From: Candidatus Nezhaarchaeales archaeon
GTDB taxonomy: Archaea; Thermoproteota; Methanomethylicia; Nezhaarchaeales; WYZ-LMO8
Length of the DNA stretch: 64,000 nucleotides
NCBI GenBank assembly: GCA_038887515.1
Contig: JAWAKK010000002.1
Location: forward strand, 76,989 to 140,988
Direction of reading: 5' to 3'
The notes under the pieces: model-generated
What the model was told of the DNA's origin: nothing
The model's input: only the letters and a program-made list of their open reading frames with translations
Database searches by the model: none
In this document: piece after piece, positions 4,926 through 57,740 of the stretch
Position numbering within the stretch: position 1 is the first letter of the stretch
Layout: each line of letters begins with the position of its first letter
Program-made: the position numbers and the translations under genes

Positions 4926-4952
4926 TTCATTTCTGGTCTCCTATGGTTAAGT

Positions 4953-4976
4953 TTATATAGAAGCAGTTTCTTGTAA
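4953..4976 (+). promoter_or_regulatory. Thermosome promoter: TATA box plus AGAA-N5-TTCT inverted repeat
   Basis: TTATATAGAAGCagTTTCTtgTAA; 20/24 identical to 63508-63531 upstream of the second thermosome gene. Confidence 0.7.
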
Positions 4977-4997
4977 ACTCAGAAAATTGATTATTAG

Positions 4998-6647
4998 GTG
5001 ATGGCGATGTCTGTAGCGCTACCCGTTCTAGTCCTCAAGGAAGGTACTACGAGAACCGTGGGGAGGGAAGCTTTAAGGGCCAATATATTGGCTGCAAAAA
5101 TCATTGCAGAGACGGTCAAGAGCTCCTTAGGCCCCAGAGGAATGGATAAGATGTTGGTAAGCAGCTTTGGCGACGTCACTATAACCAATGATGGTGCTAC
5201 GATATTAAAGGAAATGGACATACAGCATCCTGCAGCTAAGATGATGGTTGAAGTGGCGAAGGCTCAAGATTCTGAAGTTGGCGACGGCACAACTACGGCC
5301 GTCGTCTTGGCAGGAGAGCTACTAAAGAATGCCGAAGAATTGCTTGACGAGGACATTCATCCAACGATTGTAATTGATGGTTATAGAAAGGCGTTGGAGA
5401 AGGCGTTGGAGGTGCTGGAAACCCTAGCAATCTCAGTAGACCCAACGGATAAGGAGGCGCTGACCAAAGTAGCCTTAACAACACTAAGCGGTAAGGCCTC
5501 GGTAGCTGGTTCAAAGGAGCTATTAGCCAAGTATGCTGTAGAAGCCATACTTAAAGTTGCTCAGAAGAAGGACGGTAGATGGGTTGTCGATATAGACGAC
5601 GTAAAGGTCGAGAAGAAACGTGGTGAATCTTTAAACGAAACAATACTTGTTGATGGTTTAGTGATAGACAAGGAAGTAGTTCATCCAGGCATGCCGAAGC
5701 TAGTTCGTAACGCAAAGATAGCGGTCCTAGAAGCCCCACTCGAAATAGAGAAAACCGAGATAACCGCTAAGATCAATATAACGAGCCCAGAACAAATGAA
5801 GGCCTTCTTAGATGAAGAAGTCAACGTCCTAAAGAAGATGGTTGAAAAGATAGCTTCAGTCGGAGCGAATGTCGTATTTTGCGAGAAGGGCATAGATGAT
5901 GTTGCCCAGCACTTCTTAGCCAAGAAGGGCATAATGGCTGTTAGGAGGGTTAAGAGGTCCGATATCGAGAAGATAGCTAAAGCTACCGGAGCAAGAATAG
6001 TGACGAGCATCGACGATCTCAGCGAAAGCGACTTAGGTTATGCGGAGGAGGTTGAAGAGGTCAAGGTTGCCGATGAAAAAATGGTGTTCGTTAAGGGTTG
6101 CAAGAACCCAAGAGCAGTCTCGATACTCATTAGAGGAAGTAGCGATATGAGCATAAAAGAGGCGGAGAGGTCGCTTCACGACGCACTATGTGTTGTAAGG
6201 AACGTAGTCCAAGAACCCAAGATACTCCCCGGAGGAGGAGCCCCTGAAATAGCCCTAGCCCTAGCTCTAAGGGACTGGGCTAGGAGTCTCCCAGGTAGGG
6301 AACAACTTGCAGCTATGAAATTTGCCGATGCCTTGGAAGCCATACCGTCAATACTAGCCGAGACCGCCGGTCTAGATCCACTCGACATAATAGTTAAGCT
6401 GAGGGCTCATCACGAGAAGGGCTTAAAGACGTATGGGGTTAACGTTCTAAAGGGCGAGATAGCGGACATGGCTCAACTGAATGTCTTCGAGCCCCTCGCT
6501 GTCAAGAGGCAAGCCCTCAAATCTGCCACCGAAGCAGCGATAATGGTGTTGAAGATAGACGATGTAATAGCTGCAGCGCCACCAAAGAAAGAGAAGGAAA
6601 AAGGAAAAGAGGGAGAGACGCCTAAACTTGGCGAGGAAGAATTTTGA
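4998..6647 (+). CDS. ths: Thermosome (group II chaperonin) subunit
   Basis: [31 protein letters not shown]. Confidence 0.98.
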
Positions 6648-49417: not shown

Positions 49418-49502
49418 GCCGGGATGGCCGAGTGGACCAAGGCGCCAGCCTTGAGAGCTGGTGTCCCCATGGGACGCGCGGGTTCGAATCCCGCTCCCGG
49501 CG
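49418..49502 (+). tRNA. tRNA-Ser(TGA), long variable arm, no intron, CCA not encoded
   Basis: Acceptor GCCGGGA/TCCCGGC, G discriminator; anticodon stem CCAGC/GCTGG, loop CTTGAGA (TGA at 49452-54); GGTTCGAATCC T-loop. Confidence 0.95.
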
Positions 49503-49546
49503 CTATAATAAAGCAATCCCGATAATCACTTAATGGTGGCCCTATA

Positions 49547-50028: not shown

Positions 50029-50757
50029 CTACTTCGACTTAATGTACATCTCCCTTTTCCTTAAGAATTCTACTATATTGCTGAATGGTTTAGCCGGGAC
50101 GCCTTTAACTGCAACGCCCCTAGGGACGTCTCTTGTCACTACGCTTCCTGCTGCAATAAATGACTCCTCTCCCACTTCTACTCCTGCAACAATTATGGCG
50201 TTAGCGGCTATTATTGCCCCCCTACCTATCTTTGTTGAAACTATTCTTCTACTAGGAGGATACTTATCATTAGTTATGACTACCTTAGGACCTAGAAAAA
50301 CGTCGTCGCATATTATGGTACCCCTAGGTATAAAGACGCCTGATTGTATGTTAACTCTTTTACCTATGCGAGTCTCCCCTTCTATAATTGTATAAGAGCC
50401 TACACTCGAATGGTCGCCTACCTCAGTGTCTTCGCGAACAAGTACGTTATGCCCAAAGTGCACCTCGTCGCCTACCTTAACTCGTTCATAAACTACGCAG
50501 CCGCTACGTAAAATACATCTTTCCCCCACTATACAGCCTTTACTTACCTCGTCAAAAGCGGAGTCGATGCTCCGCCCTTGTATACTTGACTCTAATAACT
50601 TAGCTAGGCTCTGGCGTGTAGGATACCCCAGTATAACCATGTCGTCAATGATCGTATCTTTGCCTACGAAAGTACTTCCATAAACCTTTATCAGGGATCC
50701 GAGGATACAAGCGTTTACCAAGGCTCTACTGGAAATATACCGCAACAAGGTTACCAC
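50029..50757 (-). CDS. Hexapeptide-repeat (left-handed beta-helix) N-acetyltransferase, WbpD-like
   Basis: Repeated [IV]GxxxxI, VFLGP.VVITNDKYPP, IAAGSVVTRDVP...GVPA. Confidence 0.88.
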   Translation of the reverse strand: MVTLLRYISSRALVNACILGSLIKVYGSTFVGKDTIIDDMVILGYPTRQSLAKLLESSIQGRSIDSAFDEVSKGCIVGERCILRSGCVVYERVKVGDEVHFGHNVLVREDTEVGDHSSVGSYTIIEGETRIGKRVNIQSGVFIPRGTIICDDVFLGPKVVITNDKYPPSRRIVSTKIGRGAIIAANAIIVAGVEVGEESFIAAGSVVTRDVPRGVAVKGVPAKPFSNIVEFLRKREMYIKSK

Positions 50758-50881
50758 CTAATTTGAGGGCCTCAGGTCATGAATGGTCTTTCACGGTAAT
50801 TCAACACTCGGCAAGCTCTTCATCGGCCAGTTAGACTTGTGTAGGAGGGACTTATATCTCTTTAGTAAAGGTGTATATGTA

Positions 50882-51736: not shown

Positions 51737-51849
51737 CTATGAAGGGCGAAGCAGATTCGAATACTTCAAGGAAATAAAGATTAAATAGGGGGCTGGGCAT
51801 TTTTACTCTCCAAAACGACGTTAACTTGTAAGGTTAAGAGGGATTAAGC

Positions 51850-53958: not shown

Positions 53959-54678
53959 ATGGGTAAGCGGATATTAGCCCAACGTAAGGGTCGTGGAGGT
54001 TCGGTATTTAGATCGCCGAAATGGATTCATAAGGGGCCTGCCAAATATCCCAACCTTAACATGAAGGAAAAGGAGAATGTAATTGAAGGAAAAGTTGAAG
54101 CAATAATACACGATCCAGGTAGAGGGGCCCCCCTAGCATTGATTAAATTATCTGATGGAACTAGGTTTCTTAACGTAGCTGCCGAGGGTATTAGAATAGG
54201 GCAGAAGGTACAGATCGGAGATAAAGCTGAAGTAGCTCCTGGAAATATCCTGCCTTTAAGGAGCATACCCGATGGGACTAAGGTTTTCAACATAGAGTTA
54301 ACATATGGAGATGGTGGGCGCTTAGTTAGAGGTTCAGGTTGTTACGCTATAGTTTTAGGGCACTCAGCCGAAGGCGTATACGTAAGCCTTCCATCGGGGA
54401 AGACCAGGCTCGTAAGCGGTTTAGCGAGAGCGACGGTAGGCGTCGTAGCAGGTGGTGGTAGAACTGAAAAGCCATTCATAAAGGCCGGAGCTAAGTACCA
54501 CCTATCCAAAGTCAAGGCATGGAAGTACCCTGAAGTAAGAGGTAAGGCGATGGGTGCCTATGCTCACCCGCACGGCGGAGGAGCACATCCAAAGGGTGGC
54601 ACGCCAGTGAGTCATGGAACACCGCCCGGAGCAAAGGTAGGTCACATCTCTAGTAGAAGGACCGGGAAGAAAGAGTAG
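53959..54678 (+). CDS. rpl2: 50S ribosomal protein L2
   Basis: MGKRILAQRKGRG, HDPGRGAP, VRGKAM..YAHPHGGG. Confidence 0.98.
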   Translation: MGKRILAQRKGRGGSVFRSPKWIHKGPAKYPNLNMKEKENVIEGKVEAIIHDPGRGAPLALIKLSDGTRFLNVAAEGIRIGQKVQIGDKAEVAPGNILPLRSIPDGTKVFNIELTYGDGGRLVRGSGCYAIVLGHSAEGVYVSLPSGKTRLVSGLARATVGVVAGGGRTEKPFIKAGAKYHLSKVKAWKYPEVRGKAMGAYAHPHGGGAHPKGGTPVSHGTPPGAKVGHISSRRTGKKE

Positions 54679-54695
54679 AAGGGTTATCACATCAG

Positions 54696-54734
54696 CTCGT
54701 AGCATTTAACCTACGACTACGAGGAAAAATGCTA
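54696..54734. repeat. Nested inverted repeats at the rpl2/rps19 convergence, containing copy 1 of a 15-bp direct repeat
   Basis: CTCGTAG (54696-702)/CTACGAG (54717-23); TAGCATTT (54700-07)/AAATGCTA (54727-34); ACGAGGAAAAATGCT at 54719-33. Confidence 0.75.
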
Positions 54735-54780
54735 TTTTGATCATTAATTTCTAAAATTATAGTCTCGTCATAAGTTTAAT

Positions 54781-55173
54781 TTATTTTAAGGGTACGTACA
54801 TTGAACTTCTCGTGGCCCTTAGACCGGGCTCACCGTGCTCCACTTTTTTGCACGTTATAGCGAATTCTCCTAAGTAATGCCCTATCATCTCTTCAGTTAT
54901 AGTTACGGGGATGAACTCTTTGCCGTTGTAGACGTGGACCGTTACTCCGACCATCTCCGGTAATATTATCATGTCTCTGATGTGAGTCCTAACAATCGAT
55001 TTTTTGCCTGTCTTGAGCTCTCTAATTTTTTCGAGGAGCTTCTTCTTCTCGTCATTAAACCCCCTTGCGAGGGACCTCCTCTGCCTCGCTGGAAGCAACT
55101 TTATGAACTCGTCCATAGGCATCTCCAGCAATTGCTCTAAAGTGTAACCCCGATACGTAAACTTACTCGACAT
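54781..55173 (-). CDS. rps19: 30S ribosomal protein S19 (inverted within the S10-type operon)
   Basis: [46 protein letters not shown]. Confidence 0.98.
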
Positions 55174-55289
55174 AGTTTTACCTCTTCCTTCCAGCTTCTT
55201 ACTTTCAGACTCCTAGCCTAGTTATAAGAATTACCCTATTTAAGCGGAAACCTAATATTAGAGAGTTTTACTCTTCAATTACTAACAGC

Positions 55290-55304
55290 ACGAGGAAGAA
55301 TGCT
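55290..55304 (+). repeat. Copy 2 of the 15-bp direct repeat, in the rpl22 leader
   Basis: ACGAGGAAGAATGCT, 14/15 identical to 54719-54733. Confidence 0.75.
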
Positions 55305-55306
55305 CT

Positions 55307-55768
55307 ATGCCAGAATTCGGCTATTCCCTTCAAAACTATGAAGCTGACAAGATGGCGAGGGCTAGCGGAAGGGATCTTAGAATAAGCTGGAAGAAGGCTG
55401 TAGAAGTTTGCCGATTCATAAGGGGCAAGAGACTCGTCCAAGCCAAAGAATTACTTGAAAAAGTTTTAAGAAAGGAAGTTATGATACCGTTTACTACTTT
55501 TAACAAGAAGCGTGCCCACCATGGTAGCATAAGTAAGTACTCATGCGGAGGCTACCCAATAAGGGTCGTAAGAGAAGTTTTGAAGATTCTTAGAAATGTG
55601 GAGGCTAATGCCGAAAACAAAGGGCTCGATGTAGAGAAGCTCATTATAGTGCACGCAGCCGCCCATAAAGGACCTATAGTTAAAAAGTATATACCGCGTG
55701 CATTTGGCAGGTCAACTCCATCCTTCCAACAATTAGTGCATATAGAGGTGGCAGCCAAAGAGGTTTAG
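55307..55768 (+). CDS. rpl22: 50S ribosomal protein L22
   Basis: LRISWKKAVEVCRFIRG, GGYP, PRAFGRSTP, HIEV. Confidence 0.97.
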   Translation: MPEFGYSLQNYEADKMARASGRDLRISWKKAVEVCRFIRGKRLVQAKELLEKVLRKEVMIPFTTFNKKRAHHGSISKYSCGGYPIRVVREVLKILRNVEANAENKGLDVEKLIIVHAAAHKGPIVKKYIPRAFGRSTPSFQQLVHIEVAAKEV

Positions 55769-55779
55769 ATCGAGGTGAA

Positions 55780-56430
55780 ATGAAGGTGCCGGATGTAGAG
55801 AAGAATTTCATATCGAAGGCACTAAAAAGACTCGATGTGGACTCTTTCTTGGAACAAGAGCTAGCGAGGGCCGGCTATGTAAAGGTTGATTTGCAAAAGA
55901 CCCCGCTAGGGACTAATGTAACGATATTCTCTGAGAAGCCAGGAATGGTTATAGGGAGACATGGTTCTACAGTTCACGAACTAACACAAAAACTGGAAAA
56001 GGTTTTTGGAATAGAAAGACCGCAAATCGTAGCGGTGCCGGTAGACGTCCCAGAGCTTAATGCTAAAATCATGGCTCAAAGGATTAAGAGCGCTCTTGAG
56101 AGGGGTATTCACTTCAGGAGGGCAGCTTACATTGCTTTGAATCAAATAATGGAGGCTGGCGCTCTAGGCGCCGAAATAAGAATTAAAGGGAAGCTTAGAA
56201 CCGAGAGAGCTAGATACGAAAAACTTCGTACAGGAATAGTTCTAAAATCAGGTCAAATATCCTTAGAAAACGCCGACGTAGCCGTTGAACATGCACTCTT
56301 AAAGCAAGGCAAGATAGGTATAAAAGTTAAGATAGTCTTGCCATCGGCGGCCAAAGCCATAGAGGCGCTAGATAAAGGCAAAGTTGTCTTGAAGGCGGAG
56401 GGTGAAGCTAGTGGCAATACTCAAAGTTAA
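55780..56430 (+). CDS. rps3: 30S ribosomal protein S3
   Basis: TPLGTNVTI...PGMVIGRHG, ERGIHFRRA, GAEIRIKGKL. Confidence 0.97.
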   Translation: MKVPDVEKNFISKALKRLDVDSFLEQELARAGYVKVDLQKTPLGTNVTIFSEKPGMVIGRHGSTVHELTQKLEKVFGIERPQIVAVPVDVPELNAKIMAQRIKSALERGIHFRRAAYIALNQIMEAGALGAEIRIKGKLRTERARYEKLRTGIVLKSGQISLENADVAVEHALLKQGKIGIKVKIVLPSAAKAIEALDKGKVVLKAEGEASGNTQS

Positions 56431-56626
56431 TGACATAAGGAGAATGACAAAGGAGGAAAGGATATCCAAGTTGAAGGAACTTAAGGCAGAGCTCATGAGA
56501 CTTAGAGCTCGCCAAGCTTCAGGAGCCCCTCTAGAGAAGCCGGGGAAGATAAGGGCTATAAGAAAAACAATAGCTAGGATTCTAACGATAATAAACGAAG
56601 AAGAAAAAAGGTCTAAGCGTGCTTGA
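56402..56626 (+). CDS. rpl29: 50S ribosomal protein L29
   Basis: IRRMTKEER..KLKELKAEL...PGKIRAIRKTIARILT. Confidence 0.95.
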   Translation: MKLVAILKVNDIRRMTKEERISKLKELKAELMRLRARQASGAPLEKPGKIRAIRKTIARILTIINEEEKRSKRA

Positions 56627-57740
56627 ACCTATCTTTAAGTTTCTCTAATATCTTTGGTAGTGTGGTGTATTCCAATTCTTCAGGTCCAACCCTAGCTGGC
56701 ATAAACTCTCCCATCCTTCTAATGTAGTCAGTTATTTGCATCGCAAAGTTCCTAGCTACATCGAAGGCTGGATCATCGAATAAATCGGCAGGCTCAGACC
56801 CCCTAAGTCCTACTAGCTCTCCATTTGACAGTTGAAATCCCAGAGCTACGACCCTTGGCGGACCGTCAAAAAATGTGCATCTAGCATGTTTTAGGCTAAC
56901 TGGCATAAGAGGACCGTAATGCGAGCCTCTCATCCAGCCTGCCACGAGATGCGGGTAAGCGAATGGCGCTAATATTTCTCCAACGGCTGGAAAGCCATGC
57001 TGAGCCCTAACTATGAGGGCTGGATCGTCCTTCCCCACGTACTTTCCAGCTATTAGGCTAAGCCTTGTCGTACTTGCTACAGCTGCGATCTCCTTGTCTA
57101 CCTTTCTAACAACTCTCTCAACGACGTATCTACCTGTTGTTCCTAATAGGGCTACTAAACTGTAAAGCTCCTCGGGGCAGCTAAGATCTACTACCTTGCC
57201 CTCCATGACGTCCATAACTCTGAATATGAAGCCTTCATGCATGCTTGGATCTATTACCAAACCTGCGGTGTTGTCAGGCGAAGCGAATATCTTATAGAGG
57301 GGGTAATTCCATGCTCCCGGCTCCGTCTTGTCTGCAGCAAATACAATTATTGGTTCGCTAGGCCTTTCAACTATCTCCATTTCGGCAACTCCAGGCCCCA
57401 TGCCTTTGACGTTACCCGAAAAAGTATCTGAAAGGAGGTCCTGGCCGGCAGCATAAAGCTTTAAAGGTTTAGAAACTCTTTCGGTAACCTCCTTAAAGGT
57501 ACTCCAAGCCAAACCATGTATTTCTGAGCTGGCTTCTCCCTTATTATGTGTCATTAACAGCTCCAAGTCATCACCACAATTGAAAACGAAGTAATCTATT
57601 ATTAGGCCGCTCTTCTTAGCTTCCTCAAGTTTCTTATTCGCTACCTCAAGCTGTTTTGGGTGAACAACGTGGTGACCACACAGAGAACCTACATCCGCCT
57701 TTATCAAGCTAATAGTTATCTTCTGCGGCAAATTTATCAC
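56613..57740 (-). CDS. fbp: Fructose-1,6-bisphosphate aldolase/phosphatase (class V FBPase)
   Basis: IKADVGS..GH, GDD, KLYAAGQDLL, GNVKGMGPG, ADKTEPGAWN, YVGKDDP, WMRGSH.GPLMP. Confidence 0.97.
   Translation of the reverse strand: MINLPQKITISLIKADVGSLCGHHVVHPKQLEVANKKLEEAKKSGLIIDYFVFNCGDDLELLMTHNKGEASSEIHGLAWSTFKEVTERVSKPLKLYAAGQDLLSDTFSGNVKGMGPGVAEMEIVERPSEPIIVFAADKTEPGAWNYPLYKIFASPDNTAGLVIDPSMHEGFIFRVMDVMEGKVVDLSCPEELYSLVALLGTTGRYVVERVVRKVDKEIAAVASTTRLSLIAGKYVGKDDPALIVRAQHGFPAVGEILAPFAYPHLVAGWMRGSHYGPLMPVSLKHARCTFFDGPPRVVALGFQLSNGELVGLRGSEPADLFDDPAFDVARNFAMQITDYIRRMGEFMPARVGPEELEYTTLPKILEKLKDRFKHA

Follow-up and report, generated by a model that had tools for sequence, protein, structure and literature searches.

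An inverted rps19 gene fixed in one clade of the Nezhaarchaeales and the predicted promoters that would divide its ribosomal-protein cluster

The block of genes that runs from L3 to L29 is among the most stable gene orders known. In the genome of an uncultured archaeon that its L22 relatives place in Candidatus Nezhaarchaeota / Nezhaarchaeales (Thermoproteota), a lineage of hot springs, one gene of this block, rps19, was found to be inverted in place, and the order reads L3-L4-L23-L2-(S19, minus strand)-L22-S3-L29. The inversion is real, old and fixed in one clade of the Nezhaarchaeales, and it is apparently an undescribed gene-order variant in archaea. The explanation that is favoured here, to which a probability of roughly 0.7 is given, is that an old, clade-fixed inversion of rps19 left three units independent of each other and two promoters standing back to back, and that it was tolerated thanks to a promoter in front of L22. 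Judging from the elements predicted in the spacers, the main effect of the inversion is probably that the cluster was split into three separately transcribed units.

The stretch of DNA that was analysed, called the window below, is 64,000 nucleotides (64 kb) long and contains all eight genes of the cluster in intact form, as judged by their ORFs and Pfam matches (Table 1). A preliminary description of this DNA had placed S19 in its canonical slot between L2 and L22 on the opposite strand, with a Shine-Dalgarno sequence (GAGGT) of its own. The position and strand are confirmed by the ORFs and by the match to PF00203, and the Shine-Dalgarno sequence is indeed present. No second copy of S19 was found in the 64 kb window. 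Within L3-L4-L23-L2, neighbouring genes either overlap or are 3-16 nt apart, and the intergenic spacers of the whole L3-to-L29 cluster are free of other genes. Downstream of L29 come a convergent gene for fructose-1,6-bisphosphatase (56613-57740, minus) and then ABCE1; S17-L14 are not located there.

Table 1. Genes, signals and predicted promoter elements of the cluster, with positions in the window.
Feature	Position	Strand	Remarks
L3	51850-52863	+	ORF, strong Pfam match
L4	52860-53660	+	ORF, strong Pfam match
L23	53664-53942	+	ORF, strong Pfam match
L2	53959-54678	+	ORF, strong Pfam match
rps19 (uS19), 130 aa	54781-55173	-	PF00203, E=2e-34, whole model covered; intact; predicted monocistronic unit 2
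L22	55307-55768	+	ORF, strong Pfam match
S3	55780-56430	+	ORF, strong Pfam match
L29	56402-56626	+	ORF, strong Pfam match
L3-L4-L23-L2	51850-54678	+	Predicted transcription unit 1; archaeal four-gene module
L22-S3-L29	55307-56626	+	Predicted transcription unit 3; cluster stops after L29
Shine-Dalgarno GAGGT of S19	55184-55180	-	6 nt before ATG; read directly from the sequence
Shine-Dalgarno GAGGAAG of L22	55292-55298	+	
Predicted L3 promoter, BRE-like GGAAATAAAGA and TATA TTAAATAGG	51770-51790	+	Includes the decamer at 51781-51790
Pyrimidine-rich TTTTACTCTCCAA	51801-51813	+	At the predicted L3 start site; predicted TSS ~51812, 5'UTR ~38 nt
Convergent (tail-to-tail) spacer	54679-54780		L2 stop to S19 stop
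Block 1, GGTAATTC-TTATAA-CT	55220-55235	-	Predicted BRE/TATA of S19; conserved in 8/8, TTATA invariant
Decamer TTAAATAGGG near S19	55234-55243	-	A/T-rich TATA-like spacer between blocks 1 and 2
Block 2, AGCGGAAAC-CTAATATT	55243-55259	+	Predicted BRE/TATA of L22-S3-L29; AGCGGAAA invariant in 8/8
Pyrimidine-rich TTTTACTCTTCAA	55266-55278	+	Counterpart of the L3 motif; at the predicted L22 start site

The comparison of synteny with relatives, which had been proposed along with the preliminary description, bears the inversion out. An identical layout was observed in six further species-representative genomes (L002-L007; 80-84% L22 identity), which were obtained from Yellowstone, Tengchong, Guaymas and other sites in different studies and habitats and with different assemblers. 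The inversion is also carried by a Logan contig that is 100% identical to the window (L001, possibly from the same sample) and by a JGI metagenome contig, L082, from another species of the inverted clade, which shares 89% S19 identity and 83% nucleotide identity with L003. A scan of JGI metagenome contigs for S19 gave 80 loci. In 49 of the 50 loci with L2 and/or L22 in reach, S19 was co-directional, and L082 was the sole exception. A neighbour-joining tree based on L22 and S3 groups the inverted genomes in one clade; in the sister group (L008-L010), S19 is on the plus strand or displaced. The 4-fold degenerate sites are saturated among seven genomes: 2.1% of them are invariant, and the pairwise identity is 0.35. 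Since the inverted genomes form a single clade in which these sites are saturated, the inversion must be old, have arisen once and been kept. Of the eight proteins, S19 is conserved best, with 86-92% identity within the clade. The preliminary description would have lost its point if this arrangement were already the documented norm for the lineage. It is the norm, but no paper that documents it was found: a search for literature on inverted S19 in archaea or on Nezhaarchaeota gene order returned nothing relevant.

Two kinds of repeat were considered as remnants of the rearrangement and were rejected. At the junctions, the inverted repeats that occur (14 nt at 79% and 10 nt at 90%) are both short and weak and were treated as chance. 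A 15-nt direct repeat around S19 (54719-54733 and 55290-55304, with one mismatch) is absent from the relatives.

The spacer between S19 and L22, which are arranged head to head, is 113-133 bp long and can be aligned across all genomes. Alignment of eight sequences (the window, L002-L007 and L082) revealed two conserved blocks that are separated by a variable 4-10 bp. In block 1, a BRE-like RNWAAW motif borders immediately on a TATA box, TTATAA, which lies 37-54 nt before the S19 ATG across the genomes and is unique in the window. Block 2, which can also be written as AGCGGAAAC-CTAATAGG or CGGAAAC-CTAATAGG, joins a cRnaAnt-like BRE to a TATA-like box downstream of it; the distance to the L22 start is 56-69 nt, and its motif is likewise unique in the window. 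The two blocks are invariant or nearly so in the eight genomes, whereas only 2.1% of the 4-fold sites are invariant, and the blocks are therefore conserved beyond the neutral rate. The spacer thus holds two outward-facing TATA-like boxes, each placed after a purine/A-rich BRE, at distances from the start codons that are typical of promoters in this genome. From these features, we infer that blocks 1 and 2 are back-to-back archaeal BRE/TATA promoters, a prediction made in silico. Alternatively, the conserved blocks could be transcription-factor sites.

The centre of an archaeal TATA box is usually found ~26 nt upstream of the start site. Applying this spacing, the transcript of S19 is predicted to start at ~55200 (minus) with a 5'UTR of ~28 nt, and that of L22 at ~55277-55284 (plus). 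The two TATA centres are ~25-30 bp apart and the predicted start sites ~75-80 bp apart. RNAalifold found no consensus RNA structure in the S19-L22 spacer, which favours elements that act at the DNA level. Single-sequence folds of this spacer and of the one between L2 and S19 were no better than those of shuffled sequences, and Rfam gave no match in or near the cluster, the sub-threshold sR47 being located elsewhere.

The preliminary description had also pointed to a decamer that occurs upstream of both rpl3 and S19. It was found that TTAAATAGGG is present exactly twice in the 64 kb window (chance expectation 0.19; two matches are reached in 2 of 100 shuffles). One copy, at 51781-51790 (+), precedes the L3 start by 69 nt; the other, at 55243-55234 (-), precedes the S19 start by 70 nt. 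Upstream of L3, GAAATAAAGA-TTAAATAGG is kept in 7/7 genomes at 64-69 nt before the start despite the saturation of the 4-fold sites, and this decamer is almost certainly the L3 TATA box, as far as conservation can tell; the TATA cores of other genes in the window commonly read TTAAATA, too. In contrast, the copy near S19 falls in the variable spacer. Its position is TATA-like in five of the eight sequences and the box is absent in L003, L007 and L082, which indicates that it is not the conserved S19 promoter. The conserved S19 TATA, TTATAA, is 16 nt nearer to the gene. In this genome alone, the S19-side decamer may assist as an auxiliary TATA or serve as an alternative one, or it could be the working TATA in place of TTATAA.

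The upstream regions of L3 and L22 have a further sequence in common. A 13-mer, TTTTACTCTYCAA, has exact matches at two sites of the window only, one upstream of L3 and the other upstream of L22, and it is kept in the relatives as TTACTYTCCMA. Both regions follow the same plan: a TATA (TAAATAGG/CTAATAGG), a spacer and then TTACTYTCCMA. The occurrence of this 13-mer in front of both genes and its conservation in relatives suggest a common promoter design for ribosomal-protein genes.

Genomes outside of the inverted clade revealed that the predicted L22 promoter is older than the inversion rather than new. A BRE/TATA is found ~50 nt before the start codon of L22 in Bathyarchaeia (GGAAAACCATATAAAT) and in Methanomethylicia (AAAAACTTTTTATA). 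The Methanomethylicia L072, L073 and L081 have it although S19 precedes L22 on the same strand, at a distance of 125-130 bp. This presence next to a co-directional S19 implies that L22-S3-L29 would have been an independent unit before the inversion took place. No such promoter was seen on a Geoarchaeota contig with a gap of 15 bp between S19 and L22.

In the relatives, rearrangements are seen on either side of S19. In the sister Nezhaarchaeales L009 and L010, unrelated genes lie between L2 and S19; the genes that part the two in this group encode Nop5, ThiF, an MFS transporter and TatD. A distance of 3.9 kb separates S19 from L22 in L009. Unrelated ORFs are inserted between S19 and L22 in some Methanomethylicia and likewise in L059, and the L22-S3 genes of Bathyarchaeia have neither S19 nor L2 upstream. 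In archaea at large, uL3-uL4-uL23-uL2 and the genes from uS19-uL22 onwards have been described as two separate universal clusters, the latter with a 14-gene core that runs on into uS17-uL14-uL24 and beyond (PMC10833476).

Taken together, the favoured explanation would run as follows. A single gene, rps19, would have been inverted at the seam between the modules L3-L4-L23-L2 and S19-L22-S3-L29 onwards. The first of the resulting units, L3-L4-L23-L2, would be driven by the conserved BRE/TATA upstream of L3. The second would be a monocistronic S19 on the minus strand with its own BRE/TATA, GGTAATTC-TTATAA, and the third would be L22-S3-L29, driven by CGGAAAC-CTAATAGG, a BRE/TATA older than the inversion. 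The inversion may have been tolerable because L22 already headed a unit of its own, which would have left S19 as a dispensable end gene of the upstream unit. Since archaeal TATA boxes can fire both ways (PMC6640164), the older L22 promoter may have given the flipped S19 some expression at once. This step is speculative, and the dedicated TTATAA box of S19 would have evolved later. The preliminary description had offered, as one of two options, a split operon with a new bidirectional promoter. The split itself gains support from the two outward BRE/TATA-like blocks that are conserved, in silico, in eight genomes. The L22 promoter, however, is not new, as it is present in Methanomethylicia and Bathyarchaeia, and the notion of one shared box gives way to what are probably two separate TATA boxes.

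The other option was a non-contiguous operon, in which read-through from L2 to L22 would be antisense to the S19 mRNA and couple their levels. Spelled out, transcription from the L3 promoter would pass through L2, antisense across S19, into L22-S3-L29, and antisense pairing or polymerase collision would couple the levels of the genes. The L2-S19 spacer measures 41-173 bp in the relatives and cannot be aligned between genomes. T-runs of at least five are rare in it, and there are no consistent oligo-T terminators; a hairpin at 54698-54734 that is followed by TTTT was not significant (z = -1.39). Read-through from L2 would thus be possible, and the gene topology fits the bacterial definition of such operons (PMC11034616). 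However, the strongly conserved L22 BRE/TATA, being older than the inversion, makes read-through unnecessary, and selection should act against head-on collision inside an essential gene that is highly expressed. Three raw-read metatranscriptomes of the same study contained zero reads of this organism or of L007, and the few reads at 85-95% identity came from other organisms. A search for RNA runs of L003 gave none. A contig-level metatranscriptome (X5) holds pieces of L3, L2, L22 and S3 of an L007-like strain, as well as a 3' piece of S19 from a variant strain, in unstranded, fragmentary and sparse contigs. No X5 contig bridges L2-S19-L22, which counts weakly against read-through, as contigs do not show absence. 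Overall, a non-contiguous operon is considered improbable. Slightly more doubtful still is that it would operate as an archaeal ribosomal-protein operon of this kind with the output of S19 tied to its neighbours inversely or via processing of an RNA duplex.

It is equally improbable that one shared box serves both genes, i.e., that TBP binds the decamer at 55234-55243 in both directions and so drives S19 and L22. Such a role would be in line with the match of TTAAATA to the common TATA core of this genome, with the use of the identical decamer as the conserved L3 TATA and with the location of the box, whose distances to the start codons (66 and 68 nt) put it at the near-exact midpoint. Bidirectional transcription from a single TATA is documented in archaea (PMC6640164). 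Nevertheless, the central box is missing in three of the eight sequences (L003, L007 and L082), whereas the flanking blocks are invariant, and the A-rich BRE-like parts of these blocks point away from it. Two further alternatives concern the origin of the inverted gene. Replacement of a lost native S19 by a foreign copy inserted in the opposite orientation is very unlikely. The nearest S19s outside of the clade are those of sister Nezhaarchaeales (77% and 72% identity), in the same rank order as for L22 and S3, and there is therefore no sign of foreign origin. That the assembler misoriented S19 is effectively refuted, because seven other species-level assemblies, made in different studies with different assemblers, have the same orientation with a conserved junction sequence; the junctions also lack long inverted repeats that could mislead an assembler.

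The inverted cluster can be compared with several known systems. Relative to the S10-like cluster of archaea (PMC10833476), the same eight genes are contiguous here and in the canonical order, and the cluster is broken exactly between uL2 and uS19, at the boundary of its two universal clusters. The differences are that the genes are not all on one strand, uS19 being on the opposite strand in the window, L001-L007 and L082, and that the cluster ends after uL29 with the FBPase gene next to it rather than continuing into uS17-uL14-uL24. With divergent archaeal promoter pairs, the spacer, here of ~110-130 bp, has in common two outward BRE/TATA modules between divergent genes, which are predicted from the sequence in the present case; here, though, the pair lies inside a ribosomal-protein cluster, where it serves on one side a lone ribosomal-protein gene that has been inverted. 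In Pyrococcus furiosus, bidirectional promoters with a single TATA have the architecture BRE-TATA-BRE, and their start sites are 49-50 bp apart (PMC6640164). A symmetric TATA-like box between divergent starts is found here too, but the spacer has two separate conserved TATA boxes and its central box is not conserved (absent in 3/8), so that a single conserved TATA with a BRE on each strand is not what the S19-L22 spacer contains. The non-contiguous operons of Staphylococcus aureus (PMC11034616) share the topology of an opposite-strand gene between co-directional, functionally related genes. Their defining feature is a read-through transcript, which would be hypothetical in the present case; the organism here is an archaeon, and the downstream genes have a conserved predicted promoter of their own.

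Fragmented ribosomal-protein clusters are familiar from other archaea, as are internal promoters and promoters in divergent pairs. The proposed mechanism is ordinary, the general understanding of such clusters is unchanged, and the case is a modest curiosity. A non-contiguous operon, if true, would tune the stoichiometry of ribosomal proteins in a manner that is not yet described in archaea. Still, a single gene that was flipped within a very stable block and held across a clade is a clean natural experiment. If the predicted units are correct, it would indicate that S19 need not be transcribed together with its neighbours where internal promoters already exist. It also identifies the junctions L2/S19 and S19/L22 as boundaries between modules in this region of the archaeal tree. 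Furthermore, three short, strongly conserved candidate promoters of ribosomal-protein genes have been defined in an uncultured lineage, and the inverted S19 is a simple synapomorphy that can be used as a marker for one clade of the Nezhaarchaeales.

An exact 13-mer, TTTTACTCTYCAA, is found at the predicted start sites of both L3 and L22, and these are its only two matches in the 64-kb window. Across seven relatives, its conserved form is the pyrimidine-rich TTACTYTCCMA. The predicted S19 promoter does not carry the 13-mer. TTTTACTCTYCAA may serve promoters of ribosomal-protein genes specifically, either as an initiator or as the site of a regulator.

S19 itself is flanked by a 15-nt direct repeat, the second copy of which includes the Shine-Dalgarno sequence of L22. 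As the repeat is absent from the relatives, it is probably either a chance occurrence or the result of a recent event.

Features in and around the ribosomal-protein cluster (window positions; loci of related archaea, L009 to L077, in their own local coordinates)
Feature	Position	Strand	Details
13-mer TTTTACTCTYCAA	51801-51813		upstream of L3
13-mer TTTTACTCTYCAA	55266-55278		upstream of L22
S19-flanking repeat, ACGAGGAAaAATGCT	54719-54733
S19-flanking repeat, ACGAGGAAgAATGCT	55290-55304
tRNA-Ser(TGA) gene	49418-49503		between class I aminoacyl-tRNA synthetase and archease genes
sR47 (C/D-box sRNA), weak match	50770-50827	minus	18.4 bits, E=0.72, below gathering score
Class V fructose-1,6-bisphosphatase gene	56613-57740	minus	convergent with L29
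ATGGAAAACCATATAAATCGCCATGTAGCTGTTCAATTGCACAGTTGGAGAG	about 4935-5000		the 65 nt before L22; L014, L018, L020, L022-L025, L030-L036 and others
ORFs between S19 and L22	L059 3093-4579		Methanomethylicia; also L033, L077
Genes between S19 and L2	within L009 711-5000	opposite	MFS transporter, TatD
Genes between S19 and L2	within L010 1600-4900	opposite	Nop5, ThiF

Dozens of Bathyarchaeia species have a nearly invariant predicted promoter and leader of L22 in common, ATGGAAAACCATATAAATCGCCATGTAGCTGTTCAATTGCACAGTTGGAGAG, while the sequence farther upstream is unrelated from species to species. Contained in this block is a near-palindrome, CTGTTCAATTGCACAG, which could act as an operator or form a leader hairpin.

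The surroundings of S19 also vary in other archaea. In some Methanomethylicia, S19 and L22 are separated by two unrelated ORFs, encoding a 197-aa protein with no Pfam match and a 300-aa 4Fe-4S protein, and the remaining cluster is intact. In two sister Nezhaarchaeales, unrelated genes part S19 from L2; in one of them (L009), S19 is solitary and L22 lies 3.9 kb away.

In the window, L29 is the last gene of the ribosomal cluster, and the usual S17-L14-L24 continuation is not present within the 64 kb. The fructose-1,6-bisphosphatase gene overlaps the 3' end of L29 by 14 nt and is followed by ABCE1/RLI. The start position of L29 is ambiguous: its longest ORF begins with a GTG at 56402, overlaps S3 by 29 nt (56402-56430) and encodes 74 aa; in the identical Logan contig, L29 is called as a protein of 71 aa.

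On the upstream side, 2.3 kb separate the tRNA-Ser(TGA) gene from the cluster. The weak sR47 match falls at the divergent junction between a hexapeptide-repeat gene (50029-50757) and an RNA methyltransferase gene, whose start (50783) it overlaps.
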